The notes: generated by a model from the sequence alone, not told the origin. 35,194 nt of DNA from Chiloscyllium plagiosum (GCF_004010195.1 NC_057754.1:7173564-7208757), one strand, 5' to 3'; counted from the stretch's first letter, positions 1,417 through 35,194 are shown. Translations and numbers: made by a program.

Positions 1417-2277
1417 CTGCGGAGGGAGACATGCAGGAGTTGAGACGCTAGCATTAAGGCAGTGGGGTTGTGAAGGCTAGGGGTTGGGTGGAGACCTGGC
1501 CACATGACAGGAGGGAGGGCACGCAAGGGGAGTTTCACCAGAACGACACTGGGCCTGAAACAGTTAAATTACGAGGACAGGTTGCACAGATTGGTCTGTT
1601 CTTTGCGGGCTGGGGAGATTATGGAGGTGATTGGATTAAAATGTTTAAGATGATTAAAGAGTTCAACAGGGTCGATGGAGACAAAACTTAATTCCGCAGG
1701 GGTCGGTGGGGGTGAGCAGAAAGCAAAACCAGGTGAAAATCAGAATAATGGGAACCTGTTCAGGACGTTGGGCGGGGGAAATACTGGCAGGATTTTAGGA
1801 ACATAATGAAACAAGCAGCTGGAATCATGGTTACCCTCCATCTTGACCCCACTTGATCGAGCTCAGACCTGTCACACTCAGATTACTTTCACTGGCTTTA
1901 CCTGGGAGCACGTGCCCAGTTCCATGACCGTGCACACAGACAGAATATTCCTAATTTAGCGGAGTAGGAGAAGGCCATTCCGATTCTCAGGCTGGTCCTG
2001 GCATTCAGGGAGATTATAGCTAATGACAGTCTATTATTAGCAGATTACATCTAACAACTAAATATCATCCTCTGCTTCTTGGAAAGTCCCTATGTATGCA
2101 GATGTGCTTCCGGACATCACCATTTCCTGACAGATCTGTCACTAATTTTCTTGAAGATTCTGAACAAAACCCTATATTTCTTAAATAACAAATCGTTCAA
2201 CTAAAATTAATCTTTCACTTGTTAAAACCTTGAAAATGTTGATTTTGCATCCAAGGCAGTGAGAGACAGAGTGCAAA

Positions 2278-4135
2278 ACCACACCGTCCTGTATCAGGGT
2301 CAGTCAGGGACACAGGGTAACACACACCATTCTGTATCAGGGTCAGTCAGGGACACAGTCTAACACACACCGTCCTGCATCAGGGACAGTCAGGGACACA
2401 GGGTATAACACACCGTCCTGTATCAGGGTCAGTGAGGGACACAGTGTAACACACACCGTCCTGTATCAGGGTCAGTGAGAGACACAGTGTAACACACACC
2501 GTCCTGTATCAGGGTTAGTCAGGGACACAGTGTAACACACACCGTCCTGCATCAGGGACAGTCAGGGACACAGGGTAACACACACCGTCCTGTATCAGGG
2601 TCAGTCAGGGACACAGGGTAACACACACCGTCCTGTATCAGGGTCAGTCAGGGACACAGTAACACACACCGTCCTGTATCAGGGACAGTCAGAGACACAG
2701 TGTAACACACACCGTCCTGTATCAGGGTCAGTCAGGGACACAGTGTAACACACACCGTCCTGTATCAGGATCAGTCAGAGAGACAGTGTAACACACACCG
2801 TCCTGTATCAGGGACACAGTGTAACACACACCGTCCTGCATCAGGGACAGTCAGGGACAGAGTGTAACACACACCGTCCTGTATCAGGGTCAGTCAGAGA
2901 GACAGTGTAACACACACCGTCTGCATCAGGGACAGTCAGGGACAGAGTGTAACACACACCGTCCTGTATCAGGGTCAGTCAGGGACACAGGGTAACACAC
3001 ACCGTCCTGTATCAGGGTCAGTCAGGGACACACCGTCCTGTATCAGGGTCAGTGAGGGGCACAGTGTAACACACACCGTCCTGTATCAGGGTCAGTGAGA
3101 GACACAGGGTAACACACACCGTCCTGTATCAGGGTCAGTCAGGGACACAGGGTAACAGCGCACCGTCCTGCATCAGGATCAGTCAGAGACACAGTGTAAC
3201 ACACACCGTCCTGTATCAGGGTCAGTCAGAGACACAGTGTAACACACACCGTCCTGTATCAGGGTCAGTCAGGGACAGTGTAACACACACCGCCTTGTAT
3301 CAGGGTCAGTCAGGGACACAGTGTAACATACACCGTCCTGCATCAGGGACAGTCAGGGACACAGGGTAACACCGCACCGTCCTGTATCAGGGTCAGTCAG
3401 GGACAGTGTAACACACACCGTCCTGTATCAGGGTCAGTCAGGGACACAGGGTAACACACACCGTCCTGTATCAGGGTTAGTCAGGGACACAGGGTAACAC
3501 ACACCGTCCTGTATCAGGGTCAGTGAGAGACACAGGGTAACACACACCGTCCTGTATCAGGGTCAGTCAGGGACACAGGGTAACAGCGCACCGTCCTGTA
3601 TCAGGGTCGTCAGGGACACAGGGTAACACACACCGTCCTGTATCAGGGTCAGTCAGGGACAGTGTAACACACACCGTCCTGTATCAGGGTCAGTCAGGGA
3701 CACAGGGTAACACACACCGTCCTGTATCAGGGTCAGTGAGGGACAGTGTAACACACACCGTCCTGTATCAGGGTCAGTCAGGGACACAGGGTAACACACA
3801 CCGTCCTGTATCAGGGTCAGTGAGAGACAGAGTGTAACACACACCGTCCTGTATCAGTGACACAGGGTAACACCGCACCATCCTGTATCAGGGTCAGTCA
3901 GGGACACAGGGTGACACACACCGTCCTGTATCAGGGTCAGTCAGGGACACAGTGTAACACACACTGTCCTGTATCAGGGTCAGTCAGAGAGACAGTGTAA
4001 CACACACCGTCCTGTATCAGGGTCAGTCAGGGACACAGTGTAACACACACTGTCCTGTATCAGGGTCAGTTAGAGTGACAGTGTAACACCGCACCGTCCT
4101 GTATCAGGGTCAGTGAGGGACACACCGTCCTGTAA
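2278..4135. repeat. Minisatellite, ~43-bp unit, roughly 43 copies
   Basis: Unit acacaccgtcctgtatcagggtcagtcagggacacag(t/g)gtaac repeated head to tail, with occasional deletions. Confidence 0.97.
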
Positions 4136-7758: not shown

Positions 7759-7875
7759 CTGCAGGGAGACCACAATGGTGTTGGAATGCGTCTGTAAGTG
7801 TCGGCCATTTTGGCTCTCCTTGGTTCTCACAAAGTCTTGTAGTTGTGCGATCTGCTTGTTCAGGCTGTTTATATC
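7759..7875 (-). CDS. STX5: Syntaxin-5 coding exon 5 (117 nt)
   Basis: DINSLNKQIAQLQDFVRTKESQNGRHLQTHSNTIVVSLQ; acceptor ctgacctgttag, donor CAG|gtaatg. Confidence 0.97.
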
Positions 7876-8312
7876 CTAACAGGTCAGAAATAAATGATGT
7901 GAACAAAAACCGTTGACTAAAACACAGAATTGTACAGCATAGCATAAGGCCGCATCTGGAGTCACAGAACTCGGCCCATTGTGAGAAAGCTATCCAATTT
8001 GCCACACTCCTGCCTCCTCATTATCCCGGACCTGCAAATGCTGCCCTTTCAAACATTCTCATTCTCAACTTGAAAGCTCCTATTGAAGCTGTTCCTGCTC
8101 CCTTTCAGACAGCACGTTCCAGATCAGACAGTAAGATTCTCATCCCTCTCCTTCCCTTTCCTGATGAACTTTAACCTGTCTCTTCTGATCGCTGAGCACC
8201 TTTAAGCTTACATCGGTTTTTACTGATGCTGCCAACTTGCCCTCAGGTAGTAATCAGTCAGAGAGAAAAGGTGTCTCATCAGCAGTCTTGTGGATACTGT
8301 TCCCCCAAGTGT

Positions 8313-9269: not shown

Positions 9270-10310
9270 ACCTAACCGAGGGCCTCAGGTGGTTTGTGCG
9301 TAGACTAACAGACTCTTGGGAGAGAGTTACACACTGGAACCTAATCGAGTGGCTCGGGGTGGTTTATATATAGAATAACAGACACCCAGGAGAGAGTTAA
9401 AGGCTGGAATCTAACTGAGGGGCTTGGGGTGTTTACATATAAAATACAACACCTGGGAATGAGTTACAGACTGGAATCTAACTAAGGGGTTCGGGGTGGT
9501 TTATATATAGAATAACAAGTACCCAGGAGAGAGTTACAGACTGGAATCTAACTGAGGGGGTTCAGGGTGGTTTGTAAATAGAATATAACACCTGGGAGTG
9601 AGTTACAGGCTGGAATCTAACTGAGAGGTTCAGTGTGGTTTATATATAGAATAACAGATACCTGGGAGTAACAGATGGAATCTAACGAAGGGGTTCGGGG
9701 TGGTTTATATATAGAATAACAGATACCTGGGAGTGAGTTACAGACTGGAATCTAACTGAGGGGTTCAGGGTGGTTTATATAGAGAATAACAGATACCTGG
9801 GAGTGAGTTAAAGACTGGAATCTAACTGAGGGGGTTCAGGGTGGTTTGTAAATAGAATATAACACCTGGGAGTGAGTTACAGGCTGGAATCTAACTGAGA
9901 GGTTCAGTGTGGTTAATATATAGAATGACAGATACCTGGGAGTGAGTAACAGATGGAATCTAACTGAGGGGTTCAGGGTGGTTTATATATAGAATAACAG
10001 ATACCTGGGAGTGAGTAACAGATGGAATCTAACGAAGGGGTTCAGGGTGGTTTATATAGAGAATAACAGATACCCGGGAGTGAGTTACAGACTGGAATCT
10101 AACTGAGGGGTTCAGGCTAGTTTATATCGAGAATAACAGATACCTGGGAGTGAGTTACAGATGGAATCTAACTGAGGGGTTCAGGGTAGTTTATATCGAG
10201 AATAACAGATACCTGGGAGTGAGTTACAGATGGAATCTAACTGAGGGGTTCAGGGTAGTTTATATCGAGAATAACAGATACCCTGCAGTGAGTTGCAGAC
10301 TGGAATCTAA
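9270..10310. repeat. Minisatellite, ~70-bp unit, about 15 copies
   Basis: Unit ggaatctaactgaggggttcagggtggtttatatatagaataacagatacctgggagtgagttacagact; period 70 between 9747 and 9817. Confidence 0.97.
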
Positions 10311-15961: not shown

Positions 15962-16168
15962 CTGCCTGCTCTGCATGGACTTGCAAGCAGCAACAAACTC
16001 CTGCGTGCGGTCGCGGCACGACATGATCTCTTCCTGAAACGGGGGCACTGGGCCAGAAGCAACCGGGACCGAAGGGAGGGATTTGGAAGTGAGGACTTGC
16101 GTCTGTGTTGGCCCGAGGTAGACTCCCTGCTCAGTACTGGAGGGACCGTGGCGTCGTCGCGTATTCAT
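15962..16168 (-). CDS. STX5: Syntaxin-5, first coding exon (long-isoform ATG at 16168; short-isoform ATG at 16024)
   Basis: Translates MNTRRRHGPSSTEQGVYLGPTQTQVL...MSCRDRTQEFVAACKSMQSRQ, matching the vertebrate STX5 N-terminus (arginine ER-retrieval motif, QGVYLG, Sly1-binding RDRTQEF). Acceptor tttgtttccag before 16187; donor CAG|gtgagt at 15962/15961. Confidence 0.97.
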
Positions 16169-16178
16169 TGAGACTCAT
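16131..16178 (-). promoter_or_regulatory. Out-of-frame uORF (MSLNEYATTPRSLQY*) overlapping the STX5 long-isoform start
   Basis: ATG at 16178 lies inside the exon (acceptor 16187, or 16183 for the tandem AG), 10 nt upstream of the main ATG; TGA at 16131-16133. The ORF is read directly; its function is inferred. Confidence 0.6.
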
Positions 16179-16623
16179 AACCCCTGCCTGGAAACAAACC
16201 AGAGTCAGAGTGTACAACAATAACCTGCATTTATACAGCGCCTCTAAGATGGTGAGACCATCCACCCCCAGCACTTCGTAGAGTGGTATAACAGGAGACC
16301 AAAGGCTCAGTTAAAGAGGTTTAAGCTTTCAGGACCTTTTTAAAGGAAGCAGGGAGGTAGTTCTAAAGCTTCAGAAGCTGGGCACCAATGGAAATCACGG
16401 ATGGTCAAGGTGGCAGAATGGAAGACATTTCAAAGCACAGTAGCGCTGAAGAAGCTTAGTGTTCATGAGGGACAAATCTATGGCAGTATTGAAAACCAAG
16501 GCTGAGAATGTTTAAATTCAAACATTGTTGGACATGGGAGCCACTTATGGGTCAGGACCAGGCCATGTCTTCCAATACTAATACTCTTAGATGTCAGCTC
16601 TTCAGCAAACAATGACACTGATT

Positions 16624-16661
16624 GATAGATAGAGAGAAAGAGAGAGAGCGAGAGAGAGAGA
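16624..16661. repeat. (GA)n-type microsatellite
   Basis: gatagatagagagaaagagagagagcgagagagagaga. Confidence 0.9.
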
Positions 16662-16912
16662 CATCATTACGACAGCTACACATCTACAGCTCAGACCAGC
16701 ATTTACACATGAACTCGGTGAGCTTGCAGCACTTAACCCTCAGCAATACTGGAGGAAATGCAGGGCTGGCTTATCTCCCCGAATACACGGCAAGGAATCA
16801 CTCCCCACCACCCCCAATTAACAGAAATATTTTAACTCGCGCGTTATCAGTTGTTAAGGACCTCAAAGTTAAGTTCAGGTGAACAAAAAACTATTCAGCC
16901 CAAATAAGAAAA

Positions 16913-17576
16913 TGCAGTCGCAGGTAGATAGGATAGTGAAGGCAGCGTTTGGTATGCTTTCCTTTATTGGTCAGTGTATTGAGTACAGGAGTTGGGAGGT
17001 CATGTTGCAGCTGTACAGGACATTGGTTAGGCCACTGTTGGAATATTGCGTGCAATTCTGGTCTCCCTTGTATTGGAAAGATATTGTGAAACTTGAAAGG
17101 GTTCAGAAAAGATTTACAAGGATGTTGCCAGGGTTGGAGGGTTTGAGCTATAGGGAGAGGCTGAACAGGCTGGGACTGTTTTCCCTGGAGCGTCGGAGGC
17201 TGAGACCTTATAGAGGTTTATAAAATCATGAGGGGCATGGATAGGGTAAATAGGCAAGGTCTTTTCCCTGGGGTGGGGGAGGTCCAGAACCAGAGGGCAT
17301 AGGCTTAGGTGAAAGGGGAAAGATATAAAAGAGACCTAAGGGGCAACTTTGTGACACAGAGGGTGGTGTGTGTATGGAATGAGCTACCAGAGGATGTGGT
17401 GGAGGCTGGTTCAATTGCAACATTTAAGAGGCATTTGGATGGGTATATGAATAGGAAGGGTTTGGAGGGATATGGGCCGGTTGCTGGCAGGTGGGACTAG
17501 ATTGGTTTGGGATATCTGGTCGGCATGGACCAAAGGGTCTGTTTCCGTGCTGTATGCCTCGATGACTCTATGACTA
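16913..17576 (+). mobile_element. CR1-type LINE, 5'-truncated, relatively intact
   Basis: SQVDRIVKAAFGMLSFIGQCIEYRSWEVMLQLYRTLVRPLLEYCVQFWSP...LGLFSLERRRLR; tail gatgactctatgact. Confidence 0.92.
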
Positions 17577-18693
17577 TATATTTTCTCATCGACCTGTTCA
17601 GAGATGTTATTACACACTTCTGGAATAGGTGGGACTCGAAGTTGAGACTCCTGACTCAGAGGTAGGGACGTTACCCCACTGCATCATAAGAGCCCTCAAG
17701 CTCTCGCTTCTATACTGGTTTGATTGCTGGAAGCTCTAAACCCATATACATGCAATTGCAGTCTGTATCGTCCAATCTTACGTGAGCAGGGAGTCGTTGA
17801 GGTCCTGCTGGGGCTGGTTCTTACAAAGCTATCCAGTTATTCCCCACTCATTCTCTATGTTCCACAGAGGCTGACCATCCTAGCACCGATTCCTACCAAA
17901 TCTGTCTCCACTTCCCTTTAAGGCAGACCACACCTCTGTGTGCAAAATAGAAATTCTCATCTTCCCCCCCAGTTCTAGTCCCCTGTACTTCAGGAAGGTG
18001 GTGAGCACCCTCAACAGGGTGCAGAGGCAGATGGATCATAATGGCCCCAGGTTGGAGGGGTTTTAGTCAGAAGGTTGGGTTGGAGAAGCTGAGGTTGTTC
18101 TCATTGGGAAAAAGGGGTTGGACGGGGAGATTTGCTCAAGGGGGCTTCCATGGTGATAGGTTTGGAGAAGGTCAGGAAAGAGATGCTGGTCCCATTGGCT
18201 GATGGTACAGTGAGATTGAAGGCTTCAATTAGCTTGGAGGGCAGGGGGTGAAACTGCAAGGAAGAACATCTAATCATCACGGCGATGATAGGGACCTGGA
18301 ACCCGCTGCGGGCGAGGGTGGTGGAAGCAGAGACAATGAATGACTTCAAAAGGGAACTGGATGGTGCTGGAACTAAATTGCTCTGAGGGACTATGGGGAT
18401 AGAGCAGGGGAATAGGACTTGCTGGATATAAAGGGAGACTTGTGCCTTGTAATGAGGTTAGGGTTAGGTTAGATTCTGGGCTCACCCACCACCTGACGAC
18501 CTCCTTGGGGAAGTCGGTGGATAGGAGCCAGGCTGGGTGTGGTGACACCCACCATAGCCAAAGAGTTCTACCTTCACGCTACCGCGAGTTCAGTGAACTC
18601 AAATGAACTTCAGTTCGGAAGGGGAATGGTACTGAACCTGACACCTTGGCTCTGTTCCTCTCTCCACAGATGCTGAGTTTCTCCAGCATTCTC

Positions 18694-19245
18694 TGTGGCA
18701 TCTGATTGAGAATGTGTGTAGGGTATGAGCGGGTGGGGGAAAGAGTTTTGTGAAACAAGAGGCTTAGCTGAGCATGACTCAGATCGGGCAAGAACTTACA
18801 GTTAACAGTAAGTTAACAGCTGGAGGGAAGGGTCATGGGTTAACACGGTGGAAAAGCAGTCATTATGTAGAGCCATTTAACAAGATGAGGTAGCGTTCAG
18901 TATGCTATGTCAGTTAACAAGATGAAAAGTATTCATTATGTGAAGTCAGTTATTCATTGTGTAACAGCAGATGGCTTAATCTCTACCATTGACACTCGCT
19001 AATTGTAATGGTCACCCAATCAACATGTATGTTGCCTTATCTGGATGTTCCTCCCTGTAAAATGATTATATAATTCATTGAGAAACTGCTGTTTGAGAGA
19101 AGGCTGTGAACTCATGTCCCTGTGTACATGGGCAATCGTTTTCTCCCCCGACAGGGCCCGGAATAAAGGTGAAGGAGGTAAAACTATAACTGTGTCTCTG
19201 AGCATTTTGCTTCGACTGAGGGGGAAACGGGACGACACGATCACA
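18694..19245 (+). mobile_element. Probable solo LTR
   Basis: Repeated (G)TTAACA blocks, CCAAT 19016-19020, TATATAA 19067-19073, AATAAA 19162-19167, TGTG...CACA ends; no TSD confirmed. Confidence 0.5.
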
Positions 19246-19363
19246 CTAAGGACAGAACCCCCACCTTGGTCCTCACCTTCCACCCCACCAACCTCCAGCA
19301 AAAAGAAAAGTCCTCACTTTCTCCTGTAGCCCTGGAGTCTATGACAAAGCAAGTAATACCAAA

Positions 19364-19567
19364 GGAGAAAGTGAGGACTGCAGATGCTGGAGATCAGAGC
19401 TGAAAATGTGTTGCTGGAAAAGCGCAGCAGGTCAGGCAGCATCCAGGGAGCAGGAGAATCGACGTTTCGGGCCTTCCTGAAGAAGGGCTTATGCCCGAAA
19501 CGTCGATTCTCCTGTTCCCTGGATGCTGCCTGACCTGCTGCGCTTTTCCAGCAATACATTTTCAGCT
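19364..19567. mobile_element. Fold-back Penelope-derived mini-element with ~76-bp arms, 14-bp TSD and intact minimal hammerhead core
   Basis: 19397-19472 is the near-perfect reverse complement of 19493-19568; caagtaataccaaa at 19350-19363 and 19568-19581; CTGAAGA-A-GGGC-ttat-GCCC-GAAAC-GTC at 19477-19504. Confidence 0.85.
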
Positions 19568-20424
19568 CAAGTAATACCAAAACACTGCTTAGATTTTGAG
19601 AGTTTCTGACTCAACCACTTTCAGATAGTGAGTTCCAGACCCTAACCAATTTCTTTGTCATCCATCACTACTTACCTCAAATGGACATACCCTGGCTATA
19701 ACTCGTTTAATAATGGAAACAGTGCCTTTCTAACTAATCTCCTCATAATCTCACACACCTCTGTCAGGTCCCCTTTCGACGTTCACTGCTCTAAGGAAAA
19801 AGAACTCCAGCTTTTCCAATCGTTCCTCACATCTCAGATTATTCCCCACCACCCATCAGATTGCATCATGTCCTGGTTTCACTTTCTTTTACCAGTCTGA
19901 GCATTCTGTCATGGAAATCCCCATTCCAGCAAAGTCTGTGACGACAGAGTGAGCTCCACCCGCCCCCACTACTGCCTGAACTCCTGACTCACCCTGGCAT
20001 GCCTCTGTTATTTAAATCAGAATGAGGTTTAAGGCAGGAGCAGGGTCACTGTACGTGGAATCAGGAGATCGGTTGGACAATGGCCAGTGAGCAGGTGGAC
20101 GAGGCAGACAACAGGCTGTGAAGCAAGCATTCCTTGGCGGGTGGAGGGTGAGAAATGAAGGAGCGGGGCTGGGGTCGCACCACAGATTCAAGGGGGAAGC
20201 ATGTTTTTTACATTTGCAGAAGGAATCATATTAATACGGTTTACAGCGAGAGAGAATACAACATGGCGCAATAATGGGCACGACTCAAACAGCATTCTCG
20301 ACTGGGTTATGGGCAATGCTGACAAGGGTAGTATTTGCTGCCCATCCCTACATACCTCTGAACCGAGTGGCTTGCTCAGGCCGTTTCAGAGGAATGTAAC
20401 GTCGTGGGTCTGGAGTCACATCTA

Positions 20425-21192
20425 CACTGAACAGTACAGCACAGGAACCGGCCCTTTGGTCCATAATATCCTGCTAACCACGATGCCAAATTAAACTAAT
20501 CCCCTCTGCCTGCCCTTGGGTCCATATCCCTCCGTCCTTGCATATTCACATGCTTATCTAAAAAGTTCCTTAAACACCCCTATTGTACCTTCCTCCACCA
20601 TCACCACCCCGGCAGCACATTCTAGACACCTCCCACTCTTTAAAAAAAACTTGCCCCTCACATCTCCTTTGAACCTTTCCCCTCTCACTTGAAATGCACG
20701 TTCCCTAGAATTAGGTATTCCAGCCCTATCGACACAACTCAATTTTAGAGATTTCTATCAAGTCCAGAGAAAACAACTCCAGAGAAAACAACCTGAGTTT
20801 TTCCAGCCTCTTTTTCCAGCTCATATCCTCGAATCCAAGCAGCATCCTGGGAAACCTCTCCAGAGCCTCCACATCCTTCCTGTAATGTGGCGACCAGAAG
20901 TGAACGCAATACTCTAAGTGTGGCCGAACCAAAGTTTCATAAAGCTGCAACATGACATTCTGATTCAATTCCCCAACAATAAAGACAAGCATGCCAAATA
21001 CCTTCTTTACCACCTTACCTACTTGCACGGGCACTTTCAGGGAGCTATGGACTTGGACCCCAAGATCCCTCTGCACGTCAATGATGTTCAGGGACCTGTC
21101 ATTACCTCTATACTTTCCCTTGACAGTTGATCTCCCAAACTGCAGCACCTCACACGTGCCTGGATTAAACTCCATGTGCCATTTCTCTGCCC
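20425..21192 (-). mobile_element. CR1-type LINE, 5'-truncated
   Basis: WAEKWHMEFNPGTCEVLQFGR...QRDLGVQVHSSLK...LYETLVRPHLEYCVHFWSPHYRKD. Confidence 0.9.
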
Positions 21193-21279
21193 AAGGCCAG
21201 ACCGAGTAAAAAGAACATCGGGCTGAGCAGCCTGGCGCCACTCTCACCACCTCTGCTCACTCTCTCTGGGTAACAACTT

Positions 21280-21770
21280 CACGCAAAATACTGGAAATAC
21301 TCAGCAGGTTAGGCAGCAGCTACAGCTCTCTGGCTAACTTACATTCTTGCAACAGCAACAGAAAATACTGATAATATTCAGATCAGGCAGCAGCTGCAGG
21401 GAGAGAAACAGAGTTAAGATTACATCTCGATAACCTCTCATCTGTAACGGGGAAAGTTAAAGATGTAAGAGAAGGTTAGAGAGAAACAGCAAGGCCAGAG
21501 ATACAGGTGAGAGACAGGACAGATTGAATAGTTCATCTTACAAAGCCAATGGGAATGGTGATGGTGCAAGAAAATACACTTGAGGGAGAGAGGTTTGCAG
21601 AGACTATGGTCTGAAATTGTTGAACTCAAGTGGAGTCTGAAAGATTATAAAATGTCTAACTGGAAGATGAGGTGCTGTTCCTCAACCTTACATGGAGCCT
21701 CACTGGAACAGTGCAGCAGGTAGAGGACAGAGATGTCTGTGACAGCATCCAGATGAAGCATTCGGACAGC
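21280..21770 (-). mobile_element. Degenerate Penelope-like element 3' region
   Basis: aactggaagatgaggtgctgttcctcaac resembles 268-292 and 22795-22822; terminal ctggaaatactcagcaggt.aggcagca motif. Confidence 0.5.
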
Positions 21771-22429
21771 AAGCCACTAGCTGGGGCCTGAACGCGAGCA
21801 GAATTCTGCAAAGTGGAACTGAAATTGAATTGAATTGAAACACAGATAAATGAGGGTCGAGAGAGAGGAGAGATGATTGGGATTAAGCCCCAATGTGGTG
21901 TAGTCAAATTGAATTGTAGTAACTGTAACGACTCATCAGACTGTGAGTTCCCTGGCTGGACCACATTAACAGCCCCGATCAGTGAGCCCTGGCTGACAGA
22001 TAAAAAGAGGACAGGGAGCCGGAAGGGGCAAAGGGGCGAGCTACCCGAGAGTGGCCGGAAGGTGGGAGGGACAGGTGGGTTGCTAGGGGTCTGTATTGAA
22101 TGCACTGGTTTTTTTTATGTAATTGGACTGTCTTACACGTACAAATGTTACTCTTTTGTAATGATAGAAACTGGGATTTGAGGTTCCTCATTTCCCTGAA
22201 AACAGGTTGAACGGTAGAGTTTGGGTTTGGCTTTGCCGTTCCTCTCCCTTGGAACATTGCTGTTTCTCTGTATACAGCTGTTAATGTTAACTGTTATTAG
22301 TAAACTGTGTATTGTTTAATAATAAAAAGAGAGGACTGGGGCCCTCTTGTGGTGTAGAGGTAGAGTCCCTACCCCTGAACTAAGAGGCCTGACTTCAAAT
22401 TCCACCTGCTCCACAGGTGTGGAATAACA

Positions 22430-22895
22430 GAGTCAAAAAGTGTGGCGCTGGAAAAGCACAGCACATCAGGCAGCATCTGAGGAGCAGCAGCGTCAATGCT
22501 TTGGGCATAAGCTCTTTGTCAGGCATGTGGGATGGGGTGGGGTCCAAGAGGGCTTGGAGATAAATGGAAGGGTGGTTGGTGCTTGGAGAGGGAAGGTAGC
22601 TTGGAAGGTGATAGGTAGATGAAGGTGAGGGGTGGTGGGGTGATAGGTCGGAGAGGAGGGTGGAGCGGATAGGTTGGAAGGAAGATGGACAGGTAGGACA
22701 GTTCAAGAAGGCAGTGCCGAGTTGGAGGGTTGGGTCTGGGAATAAGAAAACTGCTGAAACCCACATTGATGCTGTGTGGTTGGACGGTCCCAAGGTGGGA
22801 AGATGAGGCATTCTTCCTCCAGGCGTCGGCTGGATTGGATTTGGCGGTGGAGTCGGCCCAGGATTTGCGTGTCCTTGGCAGAGTGGGAGGGGGTT
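22430..22895 (-). mobile_element. Penelope-like element 3' fragment nested in a short tRNA-derived SINE
   Basis: Clear similarity to 45-450 and to the terminal sequence at 19397-19470; SINE sequence 22340-22429 resumes at ~22908 (tctgaacaggttgat). Confidence 0.75.
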
Positions 22896-24684
22896 TATCT
22901 CAGTTTGTCTGAACAGGTTGATGTGGAAAAATAAGTTAATTTTAAAAAAAAAGTGAAGGGCTGACTTTAAAAACAAAGTGTCAGCCACTCTGACACCAAG
23001 CCATCTCTGCAGGAACTGGACCAGTGTCAAGGACATGGAAATAAAGGGTGACTTGGTAACAGGATTCCAGCCTCAGTGGAGTTATTTCAGAATGGAACAG
23101 CAGGTTTAAGAATGATGCGTTCCTGCTTCTAATTCATACGCTCATATGTTGATATGTAATCGAGGCAGAATTCCTGCTGCAGAAAATCCCACAAGACATC
23201 TCATCAGTGTGGAGAGAACAAATAGTAAGGAAAGGGAGCAGACAGAAGGCTTGCTTTCAAAGGTTTGACTGAGAGGCAAAGTGCAGAGAGAAGTGAGAGC
23301 TGAGTGCATTTGTCAGGATCACCTGCAGAGTAAACCCAACTTTCGACACACACATTCCATTTCAATTAAGTTCCTCCTTGCTATTGGGGTTGAAAGGAAG
23401 GGAGTCTACTTTGATTTGATTTATTGCAACATGTACCTAGGTACAGTGAAAAGTTGTTTTTGATTAGATTAGATTCCCTACAGTGTGGAAACAGGCCCTT
23501 CGGTCCAGCCACTCCGCACCAACCCACCCAGACCCATTTTGGGTGCAGCATACACAGATCATACCATACAAAGTGCAGTGGGTAATGGAGGAGAGCGAGG
23601 GATGTACAGCTGCAGAGGTTAACAGTGGATACTGAAGATAATGCTGAAAAAGCTAGCCAAATGGCATAGAAGTACCAAAATAAATCTAACATGAGTGATG
23701 CACTTTAGTGGGAAGAATAAGGTGGTCATTAGGTCTTTGAATAATCAATAGAGAGAGAGGCAGAGACATGTGGACACAGATTTCTACATCAATAAAAGCA
23801 AAGACACAGACTGTGCTTTTAATACAGGACTTTGTAAGTACGATGAGTTCAGTTCTACAGAGACAGAATTGAAAAACTGAGGCATTATGTTAAACTTGCA
23901 TCAAATCTTAAATGGACTGAAGTTGGAAGTTTCTGTGAGCATTTTTCATATCTATTTCATGAAACAGACATAAAAAGGACCAGACAAGGGGCAACAAAAT
24001 TACAAGGTTGATACTGGAACAGAAAGTTTACATCTGTCTATGTCTTACCCTGCACTAAAACTACACAGGCTTGTAGAACTGACAAATGAAGTGTCAAAGT
24101 TTCGTGCAGAGACTTACAAAGTGATTCACTTTAGGAGGAAGACCGAAAGTCAACATAAAATACAGGGTGAGGTTCTATAGGAGTTTTGGGAGTAGAGGGA
24201 CTTTTTCATGCACACACCATTGAATGTGGCACAACAGGTTCAGTTACTGAAGCATACGGATCCTAGGACTTATGTATAGGGGCATAAAGCACCAAAACAA
24301 GAATGTTGCAACAAACCCGCATGAAACACTGGGTCTGGTTCAGCTGGAGTAGTGTGTCCATTTCTGGGTGCCATGTATTAAGGAGGAAGAGAAGGAATTG
24401 GAGAGGGAGCAGCCTAGATTCTCAGCAGAATCAGTTACATGGGAGAAGTTGGGACTGTTTTCCTCGGTGTTTTGATTGAGGTGCTCAAAATCATGAGGCA
24501 GCCGGAGAAAAAAGTCAGGGAGAGATTTATCATTGAACGAAGGAACACAGGTAATTGACAAAACAAGCGATGGCAGTATAAACGAAACTTTTTCACACAG
24601 CAAGTGGTTGGTATCTGGAATGCACTGCCCGAGAGTGGTGGAGGCAGATTTCAGCAAAGCATTCAACAGGGAATTGAACAATTA

Positions 24685-24888
24685 TTAGATTAGATTCCCC
24701 ACAGTGTGAAAACAGGCCCTTCAGCCCAACCAGTCCACACCGGACCTCCGATGAGTAACCCCCCCAGACCCATTTCCCTCTGACTAATGCACCTAACACT
24801 TTGGGCAATTTAGCCTGGCCAATTCACCCTAACCTGCACATGTTTGGACTGTGGGAGGAAACCCATGCAGACATGGGGAGAATGTGAA
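24685..24888 (-). mobile_element. HE1-like SINE 3' part
   Basis: Reverse complement of ~26180-26394, with ttaga tandem tail. Confidence 0.8.
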
Positions 24889-26080
24889 GAGAAAGTAGGT
24901 ACAGGACTTGGGGCAAAGGCAGGGGTGTGCAGCAATGGGCGAGTTGCTCTCTATCACGATATTGTGCTCCAGCCCTTCCTCGAAGTCTGTGCTCCTCCAG
25001 TTCAGGTTTCTTATTCGTGTCTGACTTTCATCACTCACTTTTGGAAGGCATACCTTCAGCTACTCAGTTGCTTCAAGGACCTCTCTTCCCCACCTTTCAG
25101 ACCCTCCTCAAAAACGACAGCCGTCTGAGCTTCATCTGCCCGAGCATATACTTTTGTAACTCAGTCACATTTTGGAACGCCTGCACAGCACCGTGGCACA
25201 TTTTATTACATTAAAAACAAGTTGTTTGTGCCTGTTCAGTCTCTTTGCCCTGAGATTCTCTTCCTAAACCCTTCCACTTCCTCGAAGACCTCAGTTAAAT
25301 CTCAGCTCTTTGGTGAAGTTTTGGGCTCCTTAACTCTCTTATTCAACCGGCCTTTATTTTGTTCCTGGCACCCGAGGACCTATTCTTCCCCAGAGACATT
25401 CCTTTACAAATGTGGGAGCAGAAGCAGCTAATCCTGTCCCTTAAGCCTGCTCTGCCATTCAATAGGATTGTGGCCTCAGTGTACGGTACTTTCCTGGTTA
25501 CTCCCTATACCCTTAAATTCTTCATTAACAAGGGAGGTTGACCTACCGGTGTTAAAATTATTTCATGATCCTCCACCTATCATTCTCCAGGGAAGAGAAT
25601 TCCAAAGAGTTATGACCCTCAGAAAAATATAATTCTCATCCCCATCCGAAATGCGAGACCCCTTATTTCTATACCATGTTTCTTGTATCATCTGCTAGTC
25701 AACCTGCTCTCCTGCACAAACACTCGCAGAAAAATAAAATCAATGGCTCTTTTATTCTGCTCCCAACTCTTCAGTGCAAACAAACATGCGGGCAACCTAA
25801 TTACAGACAATGTAACCTGGCAACTCCAGTAAGCAGCCAAACCAAGTCAGAAACTGAGAGAAACTGAAATCTTTCTATCCCCTTGAAAATATTCCAAGCT
25901 GCACTTAAAACACCACTGGCGAGATTAACACCCTCGGTTGCACATTGTGTGACATATAGCTCAACACCAGTCATTAATGGGCTAAATTCTGACTTTGTTC
26001 CCTTTTTAAAAAGACAAAGATGAATTGAAACAAACTGAGGGTGTATTTTTGCATATATGTTTGTTTTCTCTTTAAAAAAA

Positions 26081-26394
26081 GGGGCAGCACTGTGGCTCAG
26101 TGGGTAGCACTGCTGCCTCACAGCGCCAGGGACCCAGGTTCGACTCCAGCCTCAGGCAACTGTCTGTGTGGAGTTTGCACATTCTCCCCGTGTCTGCGTG
26201 GGTTTCCTCCGGGTGCTCCGGTTTCCTCCCACAGTCCAAAGATGTGCAGGTCAGGTGAATTGGTCATGCTAAATTACCCATAGAGTTAGGTGCATTAGTT
26301 AAGGGGAATGGGTCTGGATGGGTTACTCTTCGAAGGGTCTGTGTGGACTAGTTGGGCCGAAGGGCCTGTTTCCACACTGTAGGGAATCTAATCA
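26081..26394 (+). mobile_element. Full-length HE1-like tRNA-derived V-SINE
   Basis: A box gtggctcagtgggtagc, B box ggttcgactcc, V-domain ctgcgtgggtttcctccgggtgctccggtttcctcccacagtccaaaga, CR1-like tail gggcctgtttccacactgtagggaatctaatc. Confidence 0.9.
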
Positions 26395-26814
26395 TATTAG
26401 AAAGTAGTTTGCCATAAAAGCAGCACTAGCCTGGCAATGCTGCTCCACGTCTATAACCTGCTTGAAAATCTCCACCTCACATTTGTCCTTTTATCTATGG
26501 GCACAAATGCCAGCCCAAAATATCATTGTCTTTGGTCCCTGGCTGAGGAGGACGTGGATTCCAGTCCACTCCAAAAGATGTGAGCCCATAACAAACTCCA
26601 AACTCTACCATGCCAGTACGTTCCATGTTTCTGTAAGCTTTTCCCCTCGAGAAATGGGTTCCTCGAGGGCTTGGTCTCACAAACCACAAGGGGGATTTAC
26701 AGTGTTCCCCTCTGAGCAGGCAATATATCGGGATGGAGCGCTGCTTTCAGCAGCTGCTCTTCGCCCTCGATGAATGCTCCCTTTCTCTCATGCGGAGAGC
26801 TGGAGGAAGAGAAT

Positions 26815-27090
26815 GTGAGAGGGCGTGCTGCAGTGTTCGAGGTGCCACACCTCAGATAAAGTCAAACTGAGGCCCCATCTGCCCCCTCAGGGTAGCTAAT
26901 AAAGATCCAATAGAAAATATAGCAAGTGTGTGTGTGGGGTTGGCAGACTGAATTTTCTCTATCGCCCCAGGGTGCAGCATTTACCCCTCAGCCCACATTC
27001 ACTAAAACAATTTCTGGGACCAAGTATTCCATGAACCTGCACAGCTGTGCATGCGCTGGTTGCAACGTTTCTGACATTCCAGGAGTGACA
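26815..27090 (+). mobile_element. Old Deu-domain SINE (SacSINE1-like) remnant
   Basis: gaggtgccacacctcagataaagtcaaactgaggccccatctgccccctcagg...aaagatcc resembles the Deu domain as recalled. Related remnants on the minus strand at ~15705-15795, ~34190-34510 and ~34890-34990. Confidence 0.55.
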
Positions 27091-27499
27091 GGATTTGGGA
27101 AGTTGAGAAAGGAAATTCTTCCTCCAAACCAGTAGACGTTTCTCTTGGTTCAGTGCCAAAACAGCTGGCTCCATCCAGAGCAGCCTAGCAAAACGAGTGT
27201 GGTTTCCCCAGTCTTCAACCAACACAATGCACCCCCTCCAATAAGTAGTTAAAAAAAAAATGAATTGGAGCAAGAACATGAAAGCCTTCCTCCCCCTCTT
27301 GTTGCCCAGCGACAATGACTGACTGTACTGTTCACAGTTCATTAACTCAGCACAGAGCAGGATGCAGACTTCCTGGCTCAGTAAGTTCCACATCACCAGA
27401 ATGTACTGAACCAGCAAGCTGCTGGCAATCTTTCCTGGCAATCACAGTCAATCACTCTGGCCGGGTGGCCAATGCAGCACAGCACGCTCCCACAGCAGA

Positions 27500-28027
27500 G
27501 CACTTGAAATTTGCGTCACAGGTAGACAGGGAGGTTAAGGCAGCCTTTAGCACGTTGCCTTGATTGCTCAGACCCGTGAGAATGGGAGTTAGGTCGGCGT
27601 TTTGAGGTAGTATGGGATGTTGGTAGTCTCTCTTCTGGAGTGCTGTGCGCAACTCTGGTTGCCCTGCGGGATGACCTTATAAAGGCTATGAACTCATAAG
27701 GGGCAGAGATAAGGTGTACAGCAAGGGTCTTTTCCCTAGGGTTGGGGGAGTTCAAAACCCGGGACTATAATTTTAAGGTGAGGTGAGAAAGTTTTCAAAA
27801 GGACACATGGGGCAATTTGTACTTTTAAACAGAGTGGCTCGTGTGTTGAATGAACTTCCAGAGGAAGTGATAGATGCAGGTACAGTTCCAACATTTAAAA
27901 GAGATCTGAATAAGTTCATGAATAGGAAACGGTTGGAGGGATAGTGGGAAGAGTTTAGCTTGGGAATCCGGTCAGCTTGGACTAGCTGGACTGACGGGTC
28001 TGTTTCCATGCTTTATGACTCTATGAC
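27500..28027 (+). mobile_element. CR1-type LINE fragment with internal deletion
   Basis: LKFASQVDREVKAAF, then jumps to gaccttata.agg..tat; tail tatgactctatgac. Confidence 0.8.
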
Positions 28028-29123
28028 CCAGTCACCCAGAATATTCTGATTACTTAAACAGAAGGGAATTATCTGGTGTCTTAATTAAGACAGGATAATG
28101 TCTTAATTAAACATCATCCGGTCATCCAAGTATCATGAACGATGGCACATGCCCATCCCTGTGGTGTTTCCACTGGAAGCACTGGCCTAGAATGTGCCTC
28201 AAGTGGGTTTTGGACTGAGGGATGTGCCAAAAGAAATCGAACAGAACATATCACACCCCCAACAAATTTCCAGCTGCAATGTGAATTTGAAAAGATTCAT
28301 GCACATGGAAGCCAGGAGGCTCAATCTCCACATTATGGGGATACGGAGACCAGGAACGTGACTTTGAAAAATTCTCAGGTCTCACAGCATCTGTGGATAA
28401 AAACAGTTTAATCTCTCTCATACGGTCTAACTTCTTCAATTCTGAAAAGAGTCATACTGGACTTAAAATATTAACTCTTGTTTTTCTCTCTCCACAGATA
28501 CTGCTGGACATCTTGAGCTTCTCCAGCAGTTTCTGTGCTTGCTTGAGATTTCCAGCATCTGCACCATCATGCTTTTTAACTTGAAAATTCCTCTGTGCCC
28601 AGAATGTATCCTCTTGATCTACACTTCAAGAATCGATAACAATAACAACTTCGTCTCAAAGTTTCACTGGCCCATGTAGCAACAATAAACAAGTGTAAAA
28701 ACTGACTGCAAATTGTTGTGGGATGTCTCAAAGGCACATTCTTATTAGAAACCACTTCCCAAGCCTCGTATTGGAATATACATTACACTTGACCCTTTTG
28801 TACATCTAATCCTTACAACCCCATTCGGCCCAACTGGCCCACACCAACTCTCTAAAGAGCATCCCATTCAGACCCATCCCCCTACCCTCAGTAACCCTGC
28901 TTTTCCCGTGGCTAACGCAGCTCACCTACACAGCCCTGAACACTATGGGGAATTTAGTGCGGCCAATCCAGCTAACCTGCACATCTTTGTTCACAGTGTA
29001 TTAAACTATCTCAAAAACAAACAAGCCGGCTGCAGAAACTTGGTGAAAGCAACAGCAGAGTCAATCAAGGTTTGGTATTCTGCAACATTGCTTAGGAATT
29101 CTGAGCACAATTAGTTCTTTTTA

Positions 29124-29204
29124 TCAACCCCGTGGAGTTGTTTCCTCGGACAGAGTTTGATTCATCCATTTGTCCAAATATATTGTTAGCATTTCAAGGA
29201 CAGG
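29124..29204 (-). CDS. Putative last coding exon E of an unidentified small protein
   Basis: Acceptor ctttctcgtgtgttgcctggctacccag; phase 0; PVLEMLTIYLDKWMNQTLSEETTPRG then tandem stops TGA TAA. Confidence 0.45.
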   Translation of the reverse strand, partial: PVLEMLTIYLDKWMNQTLSEETTPRG

Positions 29205-29499
29205 CTGGGTAGCCAGGCAACACACGAGAAAGAGCTTTTACACAACCATCGCCCTATCATTGGTTCACTACATAGCAGCATGAAGAGAGATTATAGAGCA
29301 TGGCAACGTCCCTACCTTTGAACCAGGATGCCGAGGTTCAAGTCACACCTGCTCCAGAGGGGCGGATAATAACACCACTGAACAGGTTGATTAGAATACA
29401 TCGGCAAGGGTTGCAGAATTGATTTCGGTCGCTGGGTTTTATTTCACCCAGTACTGCAATTCTGAAAGTTAGGCAAGGGGTGACTGACATATTACACCA

Positions 29500-30000
29500 A
29501 TCACTTTGCACAGAACTTTAAACCCTTGTAAAACGCCCCAGTGGACCGCACGAGTGTCTGTAAAACAAAGTTTGGTAGTGAGCTACATAAGGAGTTGAGC
29601 ACAGCTTGACCAGCTGGGCAAATGAGGTAGATTTTAAAGGATGGGAGGGAGAGGTTTAGGGACGGAATTTCAGAACTTGGGGTCCCAGGCACCTGAAAGG
29701 CACAGGAACTACTGATTGAGTGATGGAATTCAGGGATGGACAAGAGATCAGAAATAGAGGGTAGAGATATCGAGCCTTGCCAGGGCTGGAGCTTCCAGAG
29801 ATTTTATTTTGGGGGGGGGGGGGGCGCAGATGATGTTGTAGAGCCTGGAGGTTACAGAAATAGAATCATAAATGATGGGAGAAGTTGCAGCAGCTGGAAA
29901 ACATTACAGAGATAGGGAGAAGTGAAGCCACAGAGGGAAACACATGAATACTAAACACAAGGCCTTCCAGACTGGGAGACAGTGTAGGTAAGTGAGTATG
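29500..30000 (-). mobile_element. Degenerate L2-like LINE 3' region
   Basis: ggagaggtttagggacggaatttcagaacttggggtcccaggcacctgaaaggcac resembles 7570-7630 and 16330-16400. Confidence 0.5.
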
Positions 30001-30512
30001 GGAGGGTGGAAAGGGGTTGGGAAAATCAATGAACATAGTTCATTGAGATAGGGGCAGCATTATCATTCAACCACATCAAATCAACTGAAATCCTGTGCTG
30101 CAGAGCTGCGTTCCTGATGATCAGCACACACCTCAATTGCTGAAAGAAATGGAAAAACAGGCTTTGGAGGCAGGTGCTATGATATAGTGGACCACAGGGC
30201 CTGTTCATGTACTGTACTAAGTTCTAGGATATAAAGACCACAGAAGCTTGTCTTGACAAAATAACACACTGTCAACTTCACAAGCATTAAATGAAGATAT
30301 TTACCAACAGGAAACGAGGGTAGCTACACAACTTTAAAGTTGTGTTAAAGAGTTTTGGTTTCACTTTCAAAGTTCCTCTTTGAGTGACACTTGGTCATCA
30401 GCAAAATCAATCTTCTGTATGGTTGATCATCCTCATCCATTTTATTTTGTTCCAGCTCAGTATACCTTCTCAAACTCAATTTACTGGGTCTTTAAAATCA
30501 GAATTCACGTAC

Positions 30513-30552
30513 CTTTGGGACTCTTTCCACACGGAAGATCATAAAGTTTAGC
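30513..30552 (-). CDS. Putative exon D of an unidentified small protein
   Basis: Acceptor gcaaagtttcag (weak), strong donor AAG|gtacgt; 40 nt, phase 2/0; (K)LNFMIFRVERVPK. Confidence 0.45.
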
Positions 30553-30679
30553 CTGAAACTTTGCATGCTATGTGACATTGGCATTGGTATGTGGCAGCCC
30601 TTTGAGATAATTTATTTTGATTTTTATTACACATATCTGGTAGTGGGTAATTGAAATGGGTTGGAACCAACACTATGAA

Positions 30680-31232
30680 AATGACCGCTGATCAGTAATT
30701 TAACATAAATACTGCGGTAACGAGGGTAGCTCAAAGGCTGGGAATTCTCCGAAAGGTAAATTACACCCTGACTCCCAAAGCCTGTCCATCATTGACACAA
30801 GTCAGGAGTGGAGTGGATCTTCACTTGCCTGGATGAGTGCAGCTCCAACAACACAAGAACTTTGATACTTCCCAGCATAAAAGAAGCCACAACCATTCAC
30901 TCTCTCAATCACTGATTCTGGGAAATGCACTGCAGCAACTCAAAGCTCCTGCAACAGCACCTTCCAACCAGCTACCCCTACCACCCGGAAGGATAAGAAC
31001 AACAGACACACGGGAGGACCACCATCACCGGCATGTTCCACCACAACCAATAAATCAGCCTGAGCTGGAACAATGTCGGGTGCTCCGTTAATACTGTGGG
31101 AACTCCCACCATTCCGATGTTCAGAGCCTACCAACACAACTGCAGTGGTTCAAGAAAGTAGTTCACCACCACCAGCTCAGAGGTCATTAGGGCTGGGTAG
31201 TAAAGCCAGCGACGCTCAAGTAAAAAGAGAAA
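30680..31232 (+). mobile_element. Degenerate non-LTR retroelement 3' region (second family)
   Basis: caagtcaggagt...cacttgcctggatgagtgcagctccaacaac RT-end sequence; tail gccagcgacgc related to 835-895, 12215-12280 and 20320-20350. Confidence 0.55.
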
Positions 31233-32782
31233 ACTTTGGGAAAAGTGGTAAATATTCCTCAGTCCTGCCTGCGGTGTTAGTAATGAATACAAGACATTGC
31301 CATTCACAGATATGGCAGAAACACCTTCCACATGTGTTCTCAGATCATATACCATTAAGTACAAGAACATAGGAGGTGGCCATTCAGCCCCTCAACCCCA
31401 TTCTGTTGCTCAGATTATGGCTGGATATATATCCCTCCATTGTGGCACTGTTGCCTTAACAAACTTAGACCATAAGGGATAGGAACAGGAGGAGGCCATT
31501 CAGCCCCTTGAGCCTGCTCCGGCAATCGGATCATGGCTAATCTGACATTCCTGACATCCATGTTCCTGCATCTTTCCCATAACCCTAGATTCCTTGACTG
31601 ATTAAGAATCCATCCATCTAGGCCTTAAATACACAGTCCTCGCAGCTCGATGACTCAATGGGCTGCTTCTAACGTTTAACTTATTCTTTCGTGGGACATG
31701 GGGGTCCCTGTCGATGGTAGCACCTGTTGCTCATTTTTAATTGACCCTTAAACGGAGTGGCTGGACGATTTCAGAGGGCAGTCAATAGTAAGGTACCTTC
31801 TAACTTCTGCTATAGCAGCTTCCAATTAGCGTGTACAGAACTCATCATGGCTGCACAGCTTACAGTAAATGCTGGTTGAGAGTCAACCACATTGCAACCA
31901 CATTGCTGCCACATGTGGGCCAGACCATGTGAGAACAGCAGACTTCTTTAAGGGTGAATGGACGAGTTTTTTTAAACAAATAAAAACAGGTGATTGTGTA
32001 ATGGCCTCATTATTGAGGCTTGTTTTTCCAACTTTAGAGCAGCAAACTTTTTATTAACAAGCACCTATGGGACCAGGAGTATGTCAAGTGACCAAGCATT
32101 CCTGACAATGAAGGAGGCCCACGTAAATCAATAGAAAACACACTAACTAATAGAAATGTAAGGCAGGGGGCATACACATCATTGTCATAGTTTATTTATA
32201 ATGTAATTCACAAATAATAATGCAACATTGCCTTAAATAAAACTTATCAGCAGAGAGCCTGATCACTCACACGCTCTCAACGGACTACTCAGACATCACT
32301 GTATTTGAGGAGAAGTTGACTCAAAATTTAATCAACTATTGATCATTCGTGTGGTCATTTGCTTGAACAAGTGTATTTACACTGGAGGTAAATAAATTTT
32401 AAAAACTATAATAATTGAGCAGGATAACACGTTAAATGCTGTAGTATTTGAGGTTTATAATTTTTATGATTTATCAAGACTGCCCATTCATAAGGCGCTA
32501 GTTAAAATAAAGTTTGCTGTATTTGAATCTAAACTACACCAGCTGATGTGGTTGAAGTCTCAGAGGTTAAATGGTGCACCATCAACAGCACTCCAGCAGG
32601 AAGCCTGTCTCTAGTCAGATAAAGCATTGCAGCTTGGACAATCAAAAAGTTGGGGGGTGGGGGAGGAGGTGTTTGACGCAACCATGCCTGACACCTGTCT
32701 TCATCTCAAAGGAAAGCGCGATGGATCCATATTGTTAGGAAGCAAACAAGCAACGGCAATAAACTTCAAAGAACGCCCATAC

Positions 32783-32831
32783 TTCAGCAGAATCTTCCTT
32801 CGGTCCTCACTATCTACAGATTTGAAGATCT
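32783..32831 (-). CDS. Putative exon C of an unidentified small protein
   Basis: Strong acceptor ctctcattttgttctgacag, donor GAA|gtatgg; 49 nt, phase 1/2; (E)IFKSVDSEDRRKILL(K). Confidence 0.5.
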
Positions 32832-34077
32832 CTGTCAGAACAAAATGAGAGCCAGGTTGTTCAGAGGTGATGCTAAGAATTGCTTTCCCACGCTAACAGC
32901 AGTGGAGACATGGAACTCTTCCCCTCCTCTCTTCCAAAAGCTGTCAAGGTAAGAAGCTTAAATTTGGAGGGTGAAAGGTTTTCATCAGGCCAACCGGTTT
33001 AACGGTTATTGAGCAAAAGGGGGGGGTAAGATGGAGTTAAGGTGCAAGTCTGATCAGACTGAATGAAAGAAAGGACTCTCAGAAGCAGGACGTGGCCATT
33101 CAGCCCCTCAAGCCTGTCAGTTCCTACAGTCCTATACCAGAAATGTAGCAAGGTTAAATCTGGAAATACAGCATGAGGTACTTCCAAGACAGAAGGCAAT
33201 GCAAAGGCTGATCAAAATGGGAACAGGACACAGGATCATACCCAAGAATTTTACACCAATTTCCCCTCCCCTGGTTTACGGATTCTTGCACGAACATACA
33301 CTTATCAAAGCCAAAATTATTGACCGTAGTAGTAGCTTTGAAATGTAGGTTCTAGTGACCAAAATCGCCTACCCAGAAGGAACATGCTGCTAACCACACA
33401 CTATGGTCCCCCCGATCATGGATATCAAAGCTCAATGCAAAGGGCCCAACCATGGCAATCCATTTTGCAAATATAAATGTACGATTTACAGCGTTGGTAA
33501 ACCCCCAGCCATTCAGTAATATCATGGTTGATCCAATCGCGGCTGCCCTGGACAACCTTTCACCACCTTTGCTCATCAAGAATCTAGCTACCTTTACCTT
33601 AAAAATATCCAAGATTTCTGCTGCCCACAGTCTTTTCAGGAAGAGTTGAAAGATTCCCAACCCTCAGAAAAAAAATCCTTCTTATCTCTACTCCAAATGG
33701 GCAACCCCTAATTTTGAAGCAGTCCAGCTCCAGAAGGTCCCTCAAGAGGGAGGCTCCTGTCTACATGCACCATGTCAAGACTCCTTGTAGGTTTCAACTA
33801 AGTCACCTCTTATTCTTTAATCCAGCCGAGGTAAATATTTTCAAGCATCCCTCAATCTGTACAGATGCCAATCTGACTGCTGATCCCACAAATTACAGGC
33901 TTGAACCAATTGACTCCAGGGCTCTATAACATTACACAACTCTAACAAGCACCAATCCCAGTGTTAATGACCAGGGTCCAGTAAATTGTAATTTGGCTGA
34001 ATTTGCCAGCAACGCCGACAAATGAGAGTCAGAAATACAGTCTTGCATCTACCAGTCATGAAACCTTTTGAAGATAC

Positions 34078-34131
34078 CTCCGATCATTTGATCCAAACAA
34101 ACTTCCAAGACTTCAGCACACATATGATGGG
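34078..34131 (-). CDS. Putative exon B of an unidentified small protein
   Basis: Acceptor ctcccttctgcacattcag, donor GAG|gtatct; 54 nt, phase 1/1; HHMCAEVLEVCLDQMIG; non-repetitive sequence. Confidence 0.4.
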
Positions 34132-34896
34132 CTGAATGTGCAGAAGGGAGCCAGTCTCATCCAATGACAATTTAAGCCCAACAAAGGAGAAAAAGCTTGC
34201 ATTTACATAGCACGCTTTATGCCCTCAGGATGCCCAAAGCACTTTGCAACCTCAGGAATGACATTGACAAACAATGGTTTGCGTGCAGGAAGTTCCCACG
34301 CAGAGAATTCATCTGCCTCAGGGATACTGCTTCACAGGAGGAAAGAACATTTTGCACCTTATGCCAGCAAACTTTCTCAACAGTTAGACAGGAGTCTCAG
34401 TTTTTAATGCCTTGTCAGGAGAGTATAGCCCTCCCCAACAGTCCAGCCTCAGTCTGAATTATGAGAGCTCCTGTCCTGAGGGACTTTCTGAGTAAAGCCA
34501 GCATTCTCAGCAATATCATCATCAAGCTTCAGCTTAAACACCGCTAGTAGTCAATTCCATCAGCCTTCCCCACCCCCGAAACCGGAGTAGATGATGCAGA
34601 TCTGAGGGAACTATGTAGCGCAAAGTTCACTCTGGTGTAAGGAGTGGCAAATTCTGTGCAGCCGACATGTAACGACTGCAGAGACAAAGTGAGAGTACAG
34701 GCTCGTGTTTCAGCGGCACTGCCCCTCAGCCTCACAACCTGCTGAAATAGACAGGCAGGAGGCTGGAAGAACACAGCAAGCCAGACAGCATCAGAAGATG
34801 CTTGTAGAGTTCTTCCAGACTCTAGCCTGTCTATTTTGGATTCCAGCATCTGCAGATTTTTCTCTCTCACAACCTGCCGAAGCCATCCATAGCCAA

Positions 34897-35160
34897 TGGA
34901 GAACTTTTGAATTGTTGGGCTGTAGGAAACATGGCAGCCAATTTGCATACAGCAAGCTCCCAGAAACGGCAACATTACAATGCTGACCAGGCGAGGGGCA
35001 GGAAGAGGGCGAGGGGGGCCGGACAGAGTGGAGAACTTTTGAATTGTTGGGCTGTAGGAAACATGGCAGCCAATTTGCATACAGCAAGCTCCCAGAAACG
35101 GCAACATTACAATGCTGACCAGGCGAGGGGCAGGAAGAGGGCGAGGGGGGCCGGACAGAG
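34897..35160. repeat. Exact 132-bp tandem duplication
   Basis: 34897-35028 equals 35029-35160 by eye; followed by a third partial copy of ggcgaggggggccggac. Confidence 0.92.
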
Positions 35161-35194
35161 GGCGAGGGGGGCCGGACGGCGGGGAGGAAGAGGG

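Follow-up and report, generated by a model that had tools for sequence, protein, structure and literature searches.

Microprotein isoforms that end within an intron of the 5' untranslated region (miP-5'UTR-IPA) are described for 297 human genes in the main text of PMC12548281, and the available text of PMC2568002 describes promoter-sharing pairs such as CPNE1/RBM12, for which sharing was shown by cDNA, reverse transcription-PCR, and conservation to zebrafish. Nested genes are often testis biased according to the main text of PMC11694760. Here, we examined a 35,194-nucleotide stretch of the genome of the shark Chiloscyllium plagiosum (GCF_004010195.1, NC_057754.1:7173564-7208757; "the window," with positions counted from its first letter), in which four minus-strand segments (A to D) near STX5 had been proposed as the exons of a small gene. 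The candidate would resemble the miP-5'UTR-IPA isoforms in being a small open reading frame (ORF) on the host's strand, placed after the host's 5' noncoding exon and ahead of its first coding exon, and would resemble the CPNE1/RBM12-type pairs in that a second same-strand coding sequence could use the 5' exon of the host. It differs from both in the kind of evidence: the human isoforms were shown by 3' sequencing, long reads, and ribosome profiling, and promoter sharing is evidenced for the pairs, whereas our candidate is a proposal from sequence. The two worked examples among the human isoforms also have their ORF in one alternative last exon, whereas the candidate would have four spliced exons. 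STX5 is absent from the main texts of PMC12548281 and PMC11694760. In the available text of PMC4236578, Stx5 appears a single time, marking the Dact4 locus, and the terms stx5 and nxf1 do not occur in the 12 of its 14 supplements that were searched as text. Judged from listings, and with most subscription papers outside the search, the literature offered no report of a gene of this kind at the locus. On balance, we lean toward the view that the segments are real, phase-compatible stretches that form a splice chain by chance and yield no protein.

Rereading the sequence confirmed the arrangement given in the first-pass annotation: four minus-strand segments with AG/GT sites, phases of 1, 2, and 0 at the junctions, and an open frame of 71 codons (Table 1). 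AG directly precedes all four segments, and GT directly follows the first three. The frame is open from the acceptor of segment A, the 71 codons are counted from the ATG at 34123, and the end reads TGA TAA. With C at -3 and T at +4, this first ATG is in a poor start context under the Kozak rule. The segments had been described as islands of nonrepetitive sequence. None of them overlaps repeats (self-comparison over about 1 Mb), but 84% of the 6.3 kb around them is equally nonrepetitive. Each segment had one match, to itself, in the 3.56-Gb genome, a search that does not prove rarity, and no paralogue of exon D as a protein was found in the same genome. To place the splice sites in context, we ranked all GT (429) and AG (406) dinucleotides between 28500 and 35194 with a rough weight matrix (ranks in Table 1). 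The candidate's acceptors scored -4.1 to 6.1, versus 4.8 to 8.3 for STX5 (n = 3 correctly placed), and its donors scored 1.0 to 5.7, versus 2.4 to 8.1 for STX5 (n = 5 correctly placed). By this rough matrix, the acceptors of C and D are weak.

The matching phases had been offered as evidence for a gene, a step that our chain search does not bear out. We searched positions 28600 to 34899 (6.3 kb) for chains of four exons encoding 65 to 85 amino acids, with the candidate's own weakest sites as thresholds. In that interval 348 chains passed, and at least one chain was present in 37 of 60 gap-free control window-strands; because so many local and control chains obey the same rules, phase matching carries no evidential weight. 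Among 166 wider real window-strands (with real exons left unmasked and windows containing N excluded), 107 contained a total of 47,772 chains, four reached the protein-likeness of the candidate, and one of the 166 reached its splice score too. When splice and composition scores were combined, the best chain ending at D was A-B-C-D, with 19.7, which placed it sixth among end states, and the same value was reached by 8 of the 60 control window-strands, some of which hold unmasked NXF1 exons. An alternative last segment (30026 to 30139) fits A-B-C in phase and has a stronger acceptor than D. The chain that uses it outscored A-B-C-D on splice plus composition (28.4) and scored lower on composition plus amphipathicity (4.46 versus 6.05).

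RNA data were examined over 28600 to 34890 in four runs, of which two, X1 and X8, were informative; both consist of contigs, from which rare forms are dropped, and their "RNA" label is a guess. Run X6 was read to about 2% and had nine reads on STX5, nothing aligned from run X7, and neither was informative; run X9, examined over the STX5 exons, likewise had nothing aligned. The junctions put forward for checking (34078^32831, 32783^30552, and 30513^29204) could be looked for in contigs, and none was among the 15 joints listed of 27. Depth was 0 in all four runs (two informative) both in the bin containing exon C (30490 to 30699) and in the bin containing most of exon B (32800 to 33009). In the bin of exon A (34060 to 34269), depth was 0 in X1 and 0.43 in X8. 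Run X1 contained an unspliced 193-base contig (29095 to 29287; depth, 2.8) across exon D and its acceptor; the run carries the label of another organism, and the contig has 0 differences to the assembly. Other intronic contigs occurred in X1 and X8 at depths of 3 to 6. We infer that these low-depth unspliced contigs represent intron RNA or DNA carry-over. STX5 exons 2 and 3 had depths of 110 (X1) and 35 (X8) in the same runs, and only the form joining exon 1 to exon 2 was seen. The RNA data thus speak only against broad expression of A-B-C-D.

The same contigs bear on the position of the segments, which had been described as upstream of STX5. On the minus strand, the coding exons of STX5 extend from 16187 to 1316. 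In X1 and X8, one contig each (depths of 109.7 and 34.8) spans exons 2 and 3 across the joint 15543^15962 and extends past the acceptor at 16187. The loose end beginning at 16188, 96 or 112 nucleotides long in the two runs, is CpG-rich 5' exon sequence. Its letters are absent from the window plus 200 kb upstream (up to 6 edits), and they have no exact match in the whole assembly. The window itself contains no N, a 3,688-base N gap adjoins its last base, and two further gaps precede the 3' end of NXF1. The last 94 bases of the window are 71% GC with 7 CpG. Whatever the status of the segments, the 5' exon of STX5 is missing from this assembly, and it probably lies in the gap adjoining the window. 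Because the contigs join exon 2 to a 5' exon that neither the gap-free window nor the assembly contains, segments A to D likely lie in STX5 intron 1, on the same strand, and the upstream placement is probably wrong. Were the assembly to have a silent deletion between 29124 and 16187, this placement would no longer hold, but that is less likely. If the chain is a product of chance, STX5 exon 1 would simply join exon 2, and A to D would be removed with intron 1 with no protein made; their protein-like look would be the best pick out of many chains across many windows.

Coding statistics were mixed. The GC content at third codon positions (GC3) was 0.465 in A-B-C-D versus 0.625 in 23 local true exons, and overall GC was 0.42 versus 0.53; for 27 EF-hand pieces elsewhere in the genome, mean GC3 was 0.459. 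In only one of the four segments did GC exceed that of both flanks by more than 0.03. A local codon model, itself weak, scored the candidate like background (z = -0.05), and its synonymous codon score was matched or exceeded by 35% of random chains. Several other results weigh against a chance origin. Among the 348 local chains, A-B-C-D ranks 1st on composition plus amphipathicity and 17th on splice score. Its composition-plus-amphipathicity score was reached by none of the 60 nearby control window-strands and by 20 of 2,634 simulated windows (2 of 2,634 when the splice score had to be reached too). Amino acid composition is high (P = 0.0035), as is the helical moment (P = 0.0014 versus random chains; P = 0.012 versus its own shuffles), and the CpG ratio (0.52 versus 0.32; P = 0.11) and purine share (P = 0.03) point the same way. 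The RNA test, with its two informative runs of contigs lacking rare forms under a guessed label, is also limited in what it can oppose to a gene. The composition and amphipathicity scores were chosen after the sequence had been seen, and a 35-kb window amounts to about 11 such window-strands; for these two reasons, a realistic chance rate per window is a few percent to a quarter. None of 37 local true coding windows reached the candidate's composition-plus-amphipathicity score, which helical families often reach.

External homology searches were run with contiguous single-exon frames only and were able to see very close relatives only. The exon D frame (30 amino acids) had 0 matches at an E value of 0.001 against 1.84 billion representatives. 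The exon B frame (40 amino acids, 17 of them exonic) drew four candidates, none at an E value of 10, in a search that covered lengths of 71 to 2000 only and might miss an exact 17-residue match. Pfam returned 0 families for the four exon frames, and the ESM Atlas came back blank, twice, for the single-exon frames. In the PDB, the single-exon frames of A, C, and D had 0 matches, and that of B matched three PUF chains at an E value of about 0.5, in an alignment that runs partly over intron codons.

We scored the joined frame locally against home-made profile sets for the histone fold, the EF-hand, and Dpy-30, three of the resemblances spotted by eye; HEAT, F-box, and death-domain spacings were judged by eye only. 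For the histone fold (PF00808), an archaeal profile of 29 sequences gave -0.1 bits (146 of 2,000 shuffles as high), where shark histone folds score 13 to 30 bits, and a DR1 profile gave -0.9 bits (589 of 2,000 shuffles). The EF-hand (PF13499; profile of 27 shark sequences) gave 5.3 bits (16 of 2,000 shuffles), with one partial loop in place of paired 12-residue loops bearing calcium ligands. The Dpy-30/dimerization-docking motif (PF05186; profile of six fragments, 14 of 42 positions) gave 3.4 bits (10 of 2,000 shuffles). Because about six motifs had been considered by eye, these scores are not significant. In the alignment, the A-B junction falls on an EF-hand helix and loop; EF-hand loops carry glycine at position 6 and an acidic residue at position 12, and the candidate loop has neither. 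The amphipathic helices of the candidate have, by eye, a register similar to those of the histone fold and Dpy-30. Also noted, on a small contig, was a DR1-like but diverged histone-fold frame (L038; C101836:173-409, minus strand), besides the DR1 copy in L039; many prokaryote genome records (L071 to L150) carry near-identical eukaryotic histone H4 genes, likely contamination of those assemblies.

The first-pass annotation had inferred a real small gene or microprotein. When the absence of the proposed junctions from those listed and the depth of 0 on exon C are weighed against a protein-likeness that ranks first among 348 chains, gene status leans to chance, and a real gene of any form appears somewhat the less probable outcome; this weighing is by judgment, not computed. 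The best surviving form of a gene, tentative and rather unlikely, is a minor, low-level or tissue-restricted transcript, initiated at the STX5 promoter or at an internal one close by, that would splice to A-B-C-D, end in intron 1, and compete with the full-length STX5 mRNA. The encoded protein would be small (at least 71 amino acids), amphipathic, and helical throughout, most likely a protein-binding module, for which a non-calcium EF-hand-like element is the best, weak, hint. The protein-likeness of A-B-C-D is consistent with such a transcript, and there are precedents in the available texts of PMC2568002 and PMC12548281. The distance from the GC-rich edge of the gap to the start of segment A is about 1.1 kb, and segment D contains a stop and lacks a good donor. 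Of STX5 exon 1, 30 bases are known; the frame that would join A is open across them (by eye), but so are the other two. Opposed to this are the lack of a joint (among those listed) and of exon C depth in X1 and X8 despite an active promoter, the low GC3, and the absence of a significant family among the histone fold, EF-hand, and Dpy-30 scores above. The nearest poly(A)-like hexamers to D are variants at 29002 and 28412, and the first AATAAA, at 25756, falls outside the 3.3 kb following the stop.

Improbable, in our view, is a longer same-strand gene of which the segments would be the 3' end, with its 5' exons hidden in the upstream gaps; such a gene would overlap the STX5 promoter. The frame open to the acceptor of A and the poor ATG context would suit it, as would the three N gaps separating the window from the NXF1 3' end. 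Between two of these gaps, just after NXF1 ends, is an acidic open frame (L003:5229-6311, minus strand, C45; at least 361 codons, partly repetitive), possibly linked to such a gene. It has one match in the genome, no relative among 7,995 scored candidates of 198 to 632 amino acids, and no Pfam family, and it is probably the last exon of an unrecognized gene. This frame ends in its own stop, however, and its only fair phase-1 donor is near its 5' end; there is no convincing phase-1 exon between 34132 and the second gap, and X1 and X8 show none of the proposed joints among those listed and no exon C depth for a longer gene either. Very improbable is a decayed remnant of an old multiexon gene, still in frame and protein-like with its splicing lost, which would fit the weak acceptors and a composition that is protein-like although GC3 is intron-like, but not 71 codons free of stops and frameshifts, nor the lack of a parent in the genome for D as a protein or for any segment as DNA.

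Table 1. Positions of the candidate segments, STX5 features, and other elements in the window
Feature	Position	Strand	Details and evidence
Segment A, proposed exon	34078..34131	-	54 nt; phase 1 to 1; ATG 34123; AG/GT and open frame; donor rank 19/429, acceptor rank 21/406
Segment B, proposed exon	32783..32831	-	49 nt; phase 1 to 2; donor rank 22/429, acceptor rank 3/406
Segment C, proposed exon	30513..30552	-	40 nt; phase 2 to 0; donor rank 1/429, acceptor rank 160/406
Segment D, proposed last coding exon	29124..29204	-	81 nt; 26 codons and TGA; acceptor rank 49/406
Alternative last segment	30026..30139	-	Fits A-B-C in phase; acceptor stronger than that of D
STX5 exon 2, first coding exon	15962..16187	-	Long-form ATG 16168, short-form ATG 16024; spliced contigs in X1 and X8 and nine X6 reads; translation
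Further STX5 coding exons	15543-15473, 13769-13714, 9258-9188, 7875-7759, 7194-7138, 4277-4193, 1416-1316	-	AG/GT borders, open frames
STX5 intron 1, probable extent	16188..35194, on into assembly gap	-	Unplaced contig loose ends; adjoining gap; GC-rich edge
U3 snoRNA-like copy, degenerate	26635..26823	+	Rfam RF00012, 47.5 bits; antisense in probable STX5 intron 1

The names STX5, NXF1, PYGM, GPHA2, and WDR26-like are presumptive. Within STX5, the borders of the exon at 9258-9188 were set by eye, and its frame is open; Pfam gave no match on exon 2. At position 16061, in exon 2, X1, X6, and X8 all read G and the assembly reads A, reflecting an allele or an assembly error. An out-of-frame ATG at 16178 (minus strand), 10 bases before the long-form ATG, opens a 15-codon frame that overlaps the latter and is possibly, from its sequence, a regulatory upstream ORF of STX5. 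Tandem arrays with units of 43 and 69 bases occupy 2257 to 4124 and 9272 to 10310 in STX5 introns. In the U3 small nucleolar RNA (snoRNA)-like copy, the first GAUGA box and the terminal CUGA box are off consensus, and the copy is likely a pseudogene. Near-exact direct duplications of about 130 bases lie beside assembly gaps (window 34897 to 35160; L002, about 7780 to 8050) and are likely gap-edge artifacts. More widely, the C45 region at about 7.02 to 7.39 Mb holds NXF1, the acidic frame, STX5, and WDR26-like on the minus strand and PYGM and GPHA2 on the plus strand. Gene order in the shark thus differs from that in human, where NXF1 is downstream of STX5.

If the chain is due to chance, as we are inclined to think, then phase-matched, protein-like chains arise readily in shark introns (4 of the 166 control window-strands). 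The contrary reading, which we hold doubtful, is of an unannotated four-exon gene in the 5'UTR intron of shark STX5, transcribed, in a restricted tissue, from the promoter of its host and encoding a small helical protein of an undescribed family; on that reading, and with equally little confidence, the locus would have two products switched by splicing and intronic polyadenylation. A two-product, promoter-sharing architecture is itself already known. Were the candidate real, its product would be a small vertebrate protein not described before, and a housekeeping trafficking gene would share its promoter with a second product, such that choosing one transcript would lower the other.

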